This document shows, one piece after another, positions 361 through 36,260 of a stretch of DNA of 64,000 nt. The translations under genes were made by a program, and so were the position numbers. Below the pieces are notes generated by a model. That model saw only the letters and a program-made list of their open reading frames with translations, searched no databases and was not told where the DNA came from. How positions within the stretch are numbered: position 1 is the first letter of the stretch; each line of letters opens with the position of its first letter. The stretch lies in NCBI RefSeq assembly GCF_048403405.1, contig NZ_CP183129.1; one strand, 5' to 3'. Source of the stretch: Escherichia coli. Lineage in GTDB: Bacteria; Pseudomonadota; Gammaproteobacteria; Enterobacterales; Enterobacteriaceae.

Positions 361-1359
361 TCATAACGCCTGGATTTTGGCCCACACGCTGTCATCAACG
401 GTGATGCCGTTACGGCGGTTTTCGGCCAGCAGGGTAGTAAATTCGTGGCCGGGTAAGCGGATGGCCTGGTTTTCGTCAGCGCGTTCAGCGGTAGTAACGT
501 AATCCATGATGCGTTGCAGCTTTGCATCGCGGGTGGGGCCGTCGATCAATTTATCCACTTCGATGGCGATAAAGATTTGCGAAACGCCGTATTCGTCGCT
601 GTTGTCCTGGGTGACTTCGGCAACCGATGCGCCGTCGGAAAGGAGAGTGGCGATCATATCCAGCACAATCGACATGCCAGAACCTTTCCAGTAGCCCATC
701 GGTAAAATGCGGCGATTCTTCTCGATAACGCCAGGTTCTTTGGTCAAATTGCCCTCATCATCAAAGCCACCATCGACCGGGAGCTGACGGCCTGCCAGAC
801 GGTTAACTTCTAACATGCCGTAAGAGAACATCGACATCGACATATCGACCATGGTGATTGGGGTAGAAGGAATGGCGACGATCAGCGGGTTGGTGCCGAT
901 GCGACACTCTTTTGCGCCCCACGGCGGCATTACGGCGATGGAGTTGGTCCAGCAAATGCCAATATAGCCTTTTTCCGCCGCCTGCCAGCCGTAGCTGCCG
1001 CCGCGCATCCAGTGGTTGGCATTACGTAGTGCCACCAGACCAATACCATGATCGGCAGCCAGTTCGATGGCGCGATCCATCATCTTTTTCGCTGTCAGGT
1101 TACCGATCGAACGCTGGGCGTCCCACTGTTCAATTGCGCCGAGGCTGGTTATACGTTTGGGTTGGGCATCAGGAATGATATCGCCGTTTTCCAGTTGTTG
1201 AATGAAACGAGGGAAACGGTTGACGCCGTGAGAATAAACGCCGGATTCGGTGGTGCGGGCGAACATCTCGGCACAGGCATCAGCCGTTTCGCTGTCAACG
1301 CCGCGTGAAATTAAGACTCGATTAAAGGCTGCTTTTAACTGCTCAAATGTCACTTTCAT
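361..1359 (-). CDS. yiaK: 2,3-diketo-L-gulonate reductase (332 aa)
   Basis: 332-aa ORF, Ldh_2/malate-lactate dehydrogenase-like sequence recognised as YiaK; divergent from yiaJ. Confidence 0.9.
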
Positions 1360-35160: not shown

Positions 35161-35210
35161 GCGGCCTGCTGACTTTCTCGCCGATCAAAAGGCATTTTGC
35201 TATTAAGGGA

Positions 35211-35239
35211 TTGACGAGGGCGTATCTGCGCAGTAAGAT
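35211..35239 (+). promoter_or_regulatory. proK promoter
   Basis: -35 TTGACG (35211-35216), 17-bp spacer, -10 TAAGAT (35234-35239), then GC-rich discriminator gcgccccgc. Confidence 0.6.
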
Positions 35240-35251
35240 GCGCCCCGCATT

Positions 35252-35328
<77 letters not shown>

Positions 35329-35664
35329 AATTCGAAATGCCTGCTCAGCGAGCAGGCTTTTTTGCATTTGTAGCTCATGAGGATGAGAACCTCCGGGGGC
35401 GGGGAGGTTCGACTCGAGCGAAGCGAGAGAACGTTGCGCCAGCAACGGCCCGCAGGGCGAGCCACGAAGTGGCGAGTAATCCTCTATCACCGACCAAATT
35501 CGAAAAGCCTGCTCAGCGAGCAGGCTTTTTTGCATCTGCAGCCCATGAGGATGAGAACCTCCGGGGGCAGGGAGGTTCGACTCGAGCGAAGCGAGAGAAC
35601 GTTGCGCCAGCAACGGCCCGCAGGGCGAGCCACGAAGTGGCGAGTAATCCTCTGGCACCGACCA
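35329..35664 (+). repeat. two tandem 168-bp direct repeats after proK, each with a terminator-like hairpin and a copy of the tRNA-Pro 3' end
   Basis: Unit 1 35329-35496, unit 2 35497-35664, about 95% identical; each has gcctgctcagcgagcaggcTTTTTT and ends in aatcctct(a/g)(t/g)caccgacca. Confidence 0.85.
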
Positions 35665-36260
35665 AATTCGGCACCGCACTCATTGTGGGATACAGCGTAT
35701 CCGTCTTATCCGATCTAAACGGCAACACACCACACATTTCCCTGCCAAATTTGCGCCCCATATCTCACTATCCATTAATGGATTTGTGACAGAAACCATT
35801 GTCTTTTTTTATATTTGCTTAAATCTTTTTTTGCGTTACTTATGACTGGCGCTGGCATTTTCCGCTGTGCGTTTTAGCGTTCATGGTATTAATCGCTCAG
35901 ATATCCACCTTTTCCTCAGATTTTTTTCACTAAATGCATAAAACTTAATCACCAAATGTTGCTAAATATTAAGCTGATTGTTCTGGTCATGTTGGAGTAG
36001 CACAAATTTCTCTGCTGCAAATAGCGGTTTGAAGTTTTTTTAATCTTTGTTTGTGGATTCTCACCGTTGGTGTAAATCCCGGTTGGCTGTATTGACGTTT
36101 TCACATTCTGTTGACAGATTGTAGGTCACGAGGGGCATTTTATGGAGGATCCGCACTGTTACACTGATGTTAATTAGTACGGCATCCCCACCTCATAACG
36201 TTGACCCGACCGGGCAAAAAACAAAAAAGGTCAGGCGGCGACAACCCACTGCAAAGGGTT

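Follow-up and report, generated by a model that had tools for sequence, protein, structure and literature searches.

Long reading frames across the proK repeats of Escherichia coli are very probably side effects of two tandem RtT RNA copies

The window analysed here is a stretch of 64,000 nucleotides of an Escherichia coli chromosome, in which the tRNA gene proK is placed between the end of eptB (35160) and the start of dppA (36293). The proK gene (35252..35328, + strand), which encodes a tRNA-Pro with the anticodon CGG, was predicted here and is also annotated by RefSeq in an identical sequence. A promoter scan identified a promoter-like site of proK at 35211..35239 (+), composed of TTGACG, 17 nt and TAAGAT. 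A tandem array, in which a unit of 168 bp is present 2.1 times with copies that are 96-97% identical, occupies 35310..35670 (+).

All units follow one plan, namely about 25 nt of tRNA 3' end with its flank (AATCCTCTATCACCGACCAAATTCG), an intrinsic terminator and an RtT body. A unit opens with the final ~19 nt of the tRNA, AATCCTCTATCACCGACCA, to which 6 nt of flanking sequence are joined, and this tRNA 3' end of 25 nt is repeated at 35310, 35478 and 35646. The third of these copies (35646..35670, +; AATCCTCTGGCACCGACCAAATTCG), assigned from the repeat family, is slightly diverged and lies at the end of the array. Intrinsic terminator 1 (35339..35363, +) consists of GCCTGCTCAGCGAGCAGGC followed by TTTTTT, its hairpin, at 35339-35357, having a dG of -13.4 kcal/mol, and intrinsic terminator 2 (35507..35531, +) presents the same hairpin and T-run, as seen in the sequence and from an inverted repeat at 35503-35529.

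Three long reading frames cross these repeats. The first is an Arg-rich frame of 113 codons that starts with ATG (35377..35718, +), the second has 192 codons, starts with a TTG inside the promoter and runs through the tRNA (35211..35789, +), and the third is an antisense frame of 158 codons across the same repeats (35203..35679, -). All three are judged to be fortuitous. A first-pass annotation of this DNA had pointed to two long frames, of 192 and 113 codons, that cross the proK repeats, and the ORF listing confirmed both of them; the overlap of one frame with the tRNA was also correct, as the 192-codon frame covers the whole of proK.

In an Rfam covariance-model scan, where the gathering score of RF00391 (RtT RNA) is 45 bits, both repeats of the window matched the full model (1-130 of 130). 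Copy 1 (35363..35496, +), to which the predicted fold also points, scored 101.3 bits (E 6.7e-21) and copy 2 (35529..35664, +) 99.1 bits (E 2.3e-20). As is characteristic of RtT, the repeats are found directly behind a tRNA gene of the same strand and end in the 3' end of that tRNA with its CCA, and their secondary structure is conserved with compensatory changes (143 copies). In strain GN02461, whose sequence is identical to the window, RefSeq annotates the tRNA-Pro, two ncRNA features named 'RtT sRNA' and no CDS, and the annotation of FDAARGOS_1276 and 09A19CPO004B is the same (RtT sRNA, no CDS); in none of these three were the proK ORFs called by PGAP. The RtT identity of the repeats at proK is already known and already annotated, and is in itself an ordinary finding. 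A literature search combining RtT with proK found nothing; in one paper the term proK turned out to denote a lysine analogue.

The first-pass annotation had drawn a parallel between the proK repeats and those of tyrT, which were reported to encode a small basic protein. The repeats are indeed related and belong to the same RF00391 family, and in this respect the parallel stood; the link is, however, closer than was supposed. Judging from the model scores, the proK repeats are members of the same RNA family as the tyrT repeats and are homologous to them, which goes beyond mere analogy.

The number of RtT copies at proK varies in E. coli, where 0, 1 or 2 full copies and a truncated one can be found. 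In an evenly spaced sample of E. coli records, which allows a rough estimate, about 13 of 30 had no complete RtT copy at proK, and no complete copy is present at proK of MC1061. In K-12-type strains the last proK RtT copy ends after GGTTCGACTCGA and a REP-type element is in its place; in the proK-dppA gap of K-12 (NC_000913.3) this element gives an Rfam naRNA4 match of 69 bits at 1276-1355 (+) of the extracted segment. Compared with the K-12 type, the window has a complete second RtT copy and a different distal junction (alignment columns ~347-480). These shifts in copy number would result from unequal recombination between units.

The 5' arm of the RtT body, GAGGATGAGAACCTCCG, is an inverted copy (88%) of the T-arm of the tRNA. 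It is followed by GGAGGTTCGA, which is the 5' half of the T-arm, by an insert of ~65 nt with four small hairpins, and then by AATCCTC...ACCA. The minimum free energy (MFE) fold of a window copy has -51 kcal/mol and forms a five-way junction with the helices P1, P2 and h1-h4. The outer helix, P1, joins the inverted T-arm copy to the tRNA-like 3' end, P2 joins the rest of the inverted T-arm to the direct GGAGGTTCGA, and the four small hairpins h1-h4 lie in between. In the MFE fold, the AUG of the conserved GGAUGAGAA is located at the P1/P2 junction and is partly buried in P1. The z-score of the MFE of a single copy is only -1.75.

A structure built by hand from the window copy (P1, P2, h1-h4), later matched by the MFE fold of that copy, was evaluated on 143 distinct copies. 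Standard pairs were present in 85% of the cells, compared with 34-44% when the partners were slid by 1-3 columns; as the structure was drawn from one of the aligned sequences these slid controls are somewhat generous, which does not affect the compensatory changes. These last were found in 16 of the 33 pairs, and both partners had changed in 369 cells, where the slid controls gave 32-67. Among 500 shuffles, none reached the observed paired fraction, the observed double-changed pairs or cells, or the covariation score, the number of further pair types being the one measure attained, in two of them, although both kinds of control are indicative only because the sequences are related. On the MAFFT alignment of the 143 sequences, RNAalifold predicted no more than 14 pairs, with a weak energy, and the helices P1, P2 and h1-h4 agree only partly with the consensus line of Rfam. 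P1 covaries with the tRNA, being GGGAAGG/CCTTCCC in the Tyr type, GAGAGG/CCTCTC in the Pro type and GTGCAGG/CCTGCAC in the Lys type, and h2 and h4 covary even inside a single tRNA type. As far as covariation indicates, which is the same for pairing in RNA and in single-stranded DNA, the base pairing is conserved.

GNA triloops closed by C-G are found in three of the four small hairpins; these loops, GAA, GCA and GAA, are placed at about 35420-35422 (h1), 35451-35453 (h3) and 35466-35468 (h4). The hairpin h1 holds GCGAAGC (35418-35424), with tandem G.A/A.G mismatches that are replaced by Watson-Crick pairs in a few species.

RtT follows four tRNA genes, those for Tyr-GUA, Pro-CGG, Pro-UGG and Lys-UUU, and in each case both the tail and the 5' arm that pairs with it match the cognate tRNA. 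In 130 listed copies the tail agrees with the cognate tRNA at ~18 of 22 positions and with the other three tRNA types at 11-16 of 22, the highest non-cognate match being the one between the two tRNA-Pro types. Among the matches listed, a hairpin with a T-run directly precedes the body in 37 of 38 copies of the Pro-CGG type and in 12 of 13 of the Pro-UGG type. The Lys type had this arrangement in 3 of 15 listed units and the Tyr type in 0 of 64, which separates the latter from the window, where each body is preceded by an intrinsic terminator. With a terminator ahead of each proline-subtype body, transcription of this subtype of RtT would proceed by terminator read-through only. What we add here to the description of RtT is its matching to four tRNA species and the terminator found in each proline-subtype unit, and both may be of help in work on the role of RtT.

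Taken further, the tRNA matching could mean that RtT is a modular cassette fitted to Tyr-GUA, Pro-CGG, Pro-UGG and Lys-UUU. Such a cassette would be composed of an inverted T-arm, a T-arm split by the ~65-nt insert of GNA-triloop hairpins, and the 3' end of the tRNA itself. The 3' ends of tRNA genes could be the sites to which it spreads or at which it is reassembled, and it might act as a decoy that draws off the factors which process or bind tRNAs, or else carry a tiny regulatory ORF driven by its AUG. We consider this proposal very unlikely.

The direct copies of the tRNA 3' end that bracket each unit, in the manner of attachment-site duplications, and the polymorphic copy number within E. 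coli would also fit with repeats that matter as DNA, either as relics or modules of recombination at tRNA 3' ends or as hairpin cassettes of single-stranded DNA, the proK RNA then being functionless. The terminator before nearly every Pro-type RtT body is consistent with this, as little RNA may be made, and so are the loops, which are mostly GNA triloops closed by C-G and include GCGAAGC. This last sequence forms a DNA mini-hairpin of unusual stability, and one may ask whether single-stranded DNA is the form in which the element folds. Nevertheless, the conserved core with its compensatory changes, found in four tRNA contexts, argues for selection on the folded strand, and RtT RNAs were detected by RNA-seq of K. 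pneumoniae according to PMC4147364. A role confined to DNA is thus unlikely in our view. A proposal that the stringent response is modulated by RtT is cited in 10.1101/2024.07.17.603846.

Concerning the reading frames, the statement of the first-pass annotation that one of them is very Arg-rich was borne out, since Arg makes up 19% of the 113-codon frame and 25% of its part over the RtT core. In the RtT core the Arg content of the three + frames is 25%, 10% and 15%, and on the minus strand it is up to 21%; Arg-richness is common to several frames and is not the property of one. When the 168-nt unit was submitted to 2000 dinucleotide-preserving shuffles, at least one of the six frames was free of stops in 81% of the shuffled units, and at least one on the + strand in 52%. 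Chance alone is thus expected to leave a unit composed in this way with frames that have no stop. Moreover, as the unit measures 168 = 56 x 3 nt, a frame that is open in one copy stays open in the next. Both the shuffles and the period of 168 bp agree with the earlier suggestion that the frames stem from a GC-rich, duplicated repeat.

No Shine-Dalgarno sequence at a usable distance was found in the sequence upstream of ATG 35377, ttttttgcatttgtagctc, as the first-pass annotation had already noted in seeing no convincing ribosome-binding site. The sole GAGG abuts the second in-frame ATG (35383) with zero spacing, and ATG 35377 sits 14 nt past the T-run of terminator 1. In the 192-codon frame, the TTG start coincides with bases 1-3 of the -35 hexamer of proK and the next in-frame ATG (~35238-35240) adjoins the -10 hexamer. 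If the usual spacing from the -10 hexamer is assumed, both starts of this frame would lie upstream of the predicted transcription start.

The codon usage of the 113-codon frame is dominated by rare Arg codons (CGA, CGG, AGA and AGG), which account for 19 of its 21 Arg codons (90%), compared with 22% in the 32 long ORFs of the window. The ORF products had no family match in Pfam or NCBIfam, and the products of all three ORFs were absent from ~15 billion predicted proteins in an exact-sequence look-up. The main text of two papers on ribosome profiling of small ORFs in E. coli mentions neither tpr, proK nor tyrT; one of these two papers describes unique mapping of the reads, by which those from repeats would be lost.

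The K-12 tyrT-tyrV locus, which carries tpr and rttR, gave four RtT matches (RF00391) of 133-138 bits, all on the minus strand, at 1211-1342, 1389-1520, 1567-1698 and 1864-1995 of NC_000913.3 1285500-1288500. The window copies resemble the RtT/rttR of tyrT in their position behind a tRNA of the same strand, in the tRNA 3'-end tail with CCA, in their tandem arrangement and in the core hairpins. They differ in the tail, since that of the window, CCTCTATCACCGACCA, matches tRNA-Pro(CGG) and not tRNA-Tyr, with the 5' arm changed to pair. Compared with the tyrT RtT, the window copies also have 5 nt more in the P2 loop and 1 nt less in each of two hairpin loops, and the unit is 168 bp long, whereas it has ~178 bp at tyrT. 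The rttR gene, of 171 nt, begins just past tyrV, and its end coincides exactly with the CCA of the first RtT copy.

The tpr gene (b1229; 1588-1677 of the same segment, -) is found within rttR, in the first tyrT RtT copy, and encodes 29 aa, MRSFDQGSTRAPARERCRRQRPEGRSAQR. It was reportedly first described by Altman et al. in 1981, a paper cited in PMC11623569, as a protamine-like gene, and it still carries a protein annotation in K-12. The frame of 113 codons at proK resembles tpr in its homologous start, the tpr start codon aligning with ATG 35383, in being Arg-rich and in a QRPxGR stretch that is read in the same frame. The middle third, in contrast, is in other frames. Owing to indels of +5, -1 and -1 nt, an identical block of 16 nt, AGGTTCGACTCGAGCG, is read as GSTRA in Tpr and as EVRLER in the proK frame. 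The latter does not have the tpr stop and, unlike tpr, continues across the tRNA-like tail and the terminator into the copy that follows. With its middle out of frame and the tpr stop absent, the proK product does not behave as a Tpr homologue, and BLASTP of Tpr against it, as a single comparison, gave 12 of 29 identities at the two in-frame ends (E 0.002).

In 34 of 64 listed Tyr-type copies the homologous position gives an ORF of five codons, mostly MRSFD with a stop that comes from GAC TAA, and other Tyr-type copies read another frame, GSIRAQRESVAAGNDPKGE... The Tpr sequence of K-12 is unique among these 64 listed copies.

A second K-12 annotation at tyrT, ychS (b1228; NC_000913.3 1286709-1286984, segment 1210-1485, +), described as a 'putative uncharacterized protein', is antisense to two RtT copies. 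It is likewise a long ORF through tandem RtT repeats and the counterpart of the window's minus-strand ORF of 158 codons, although it belongs to another locus and is annotated in K-12, while the proK ORFs are unannotated. As with the 158-codon frame, ychS is probably an ORF generated by the repeats. On these comparisons, the support for tpr and ychS does not look better than that for the proK ORFs.

In order to follow the frame among relatives, a pattern scan was made with one genome per species, which gave at least 120 loci, and a profile search of those loci yielded 204 RtT copies among the matches listed, 146 of which were unique and full-length. The upstream tRNA, among the matches listed, was Tyr(GTA) in 76 cases, Pro(CGG) in 50, Lys(TTT) in 27 and Pro(TGG) in 17. 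The Pro-CGG type was represented among these listed matches by 38 unique copies of at least 10 genera, which include Citrobacter, Kluyvera, Enterobacter, Pluralibacter, Franconibacter, Superficieibacter, Phytobacter, Pseudocitrobacter, Klebsiella and Escherichia.

In the 38 listed Pro-CGG-type copies, the spacing between the ATG homologous to that of tpr and the GGTTCGA, which is invariant, was distributed as 17/10/11 when taken modulo 3 (0/1/2). The ORF that starts at the homologous ATG has from 1 to 162 aa in these copies and uses three different frames. The conserved nucleotides read as ...EVRLERSE... in some species and in two other frames elsewhere, and one of these three alternative readings is the 192-codon frame of the window. 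The variable columns 3' of GGTTCGA are spread over the codon positions as 11/11/11 in either frame, and the mean column entropy is 0.29 at unpaired and 0.12 at paired positions. Substitutions that ignore the reading frame had been named in the first-pass annotation as what would speak against translation, and this is what both the spacing and the columns of the listed Pro-CGG-type copies present.

The ATG is kept in 31 of 38 Pro-CGG-type and in 13 of 13 Pro-UGG-type copies among the matches listed; it is replaced in 7 of the 38 listed Pro-CGG-type copies, and in several copies the substitute is ATT, AGT, AAT, ACG or AAG. The first six codons, MRTSGG, are fairly conserved in the Pro-type copies, and their bases lie in P1/P2.

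Among Escherichia strains, the ORF counted from the first ATG has 113 aa in the window, 115 aa in K-12, 171 aa in 09A19CPO004B, 143 aa in Escherichia sp. E1V33 and 59 aa in MC1061. In FDAARGOS_1276, which has the same two-copy architecture, a nonsense change places a stop at codon 55 and leaves an ORF of 54 aa. Five differences separate the window from FDAARGOS_1276 inside the ORF, four of which are at codon positions 1-2; between the two copies of the window there is one difference inside the ORF, which makes that comparison powerless. The frame thus failed the protein-coding tests that were applied, these being conservation of frame and start, third-position bias, a ribosome-binding site and host-like codon usage.

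It could be argued that some E. coli have a lineage-specific small basic protein, similar to Tpr or to protamines, that is translated from AUG 35377 or 35383 on transcripts reading through from proK. An open frame initiated by ATG does exist, ATG 35383 is homologous to the annotated start of tpr, the ATG is present in most copies among the matches listed, and BLASTP found a weak similarity at the two in-frame ends. However, the Shine-Dalgarno is absent, and the AUG 14 nt past an intrinsic terminator is partly buried in helix P1. Rare codons make up 90% of the Arg codons, the frame is not kept between genera, and both length and C-terminus vary among E. coli strains, one of which has two copies and the stop at codon 55. 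Also against such a protein are the roughly 13 of 30 E. coli records that have no complete RtT copy at proK, and an ORF that PGAP leaves uncalled and that is absent from the collection of 15 billion proteins. Moreover, Tpr itself is unconserved, the 34 of 64 listed Tyr-type copies mentioned above being MRSFD-stop or a close variant. The translation of a Tpr-like basic protein, which the first-pass annotation had left as a possibility, is therefore unsupported, with a frame that is not conserved, that agrees with the frame of tpr at its two ends only and that does not have the tpr stop, and we regard it as highly improbable.

Translation might instead be limited to a very short upstream ORF (MRTSGG in the Pro type, MRSFD-stop in the Tyr type), which would modulate the folding or processing of RtT in the manner of a leader. 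Conservation in the 'ORF' is in fact highest at the ATG and over the first 5-6 codons, and a start codon with a five-codon ORF is present in 31 of 64 listed Tyr-type copies. These same bases, however, form P1/P2 and covary with the tRNA-like 3' end, and this pairing explains the conservation of the first codons without translation. Since the Shine-Dalgarno is absent, several copies have ATT, AGT, AAT, ACG or AAG for the ATG, and the end of the ORF is unconserved in the Pro type, a leader of this kind seems extremely improbable.

We are thus led to suggest that the long frames of the proK region are, very probably, non-coding and side effects of two tandem copies of RtT RNA. The membership in RtT, the conserved pairing and the lack of a conserved frame are observed. 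As for how the frames would arise, the stems are rich in CGA, CGG, AGR and GCG, a composition that would make stops scarce and rare Arg codons abundant in more than one frame. The conserved GGAUGAGAA, at the junction of P1 and P2, would supply the ATG, and the unit of 56 x 3 nt would carry the open frames through successive copies. At tyrT, to judge from the rttR coordinates and from literature cited at second hand, RtT would be released from the precursor and end at the tRNA-like CCA. By analogy with the tyrT operon, the proK RtT RNA, if made, would come from read-through of the proK terminator and be trimmed at its tRNA-like CCA end.

This reading can serve as a safeguard in annotation, as GC-rich tandem repeats of a structured RNA with a period that is a multiple of 3 give long basic 'ORFs' on both strands, and such repeat-borne ORFs should not be called genes. 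It also casts doubt on two K-12 annotations at tyrT, tpr and ychS.

The window also gave a weak match to another Rfam family, RF02902 (AaHKsRNA22, the Aggregatibacter sRNA 22), at 35402-35490, with 21 bits and an E of 0.52, where the gathering score is 39.8. The likeness is confined to the core hairpins of RtT and the score is under the threshold, so that the window is a non-member of this family. Based on this match, AaHKsRNA22 of the Pasteurellaceae may be distantly related to RtT.

Matches to RtT were also obtained outside Enterobacterales, in Gilliamella and in an Amphritea MAG. Furthermore, two contigs labelled Chryseobacterium sp. 18061, from a Bacteroidota assembly, have RtT copies of the Pro-TGG type, which among the matches listed was otherwise found in Enterobacterales and Gilliamella, and these contigs may represent contamination of the assembly.
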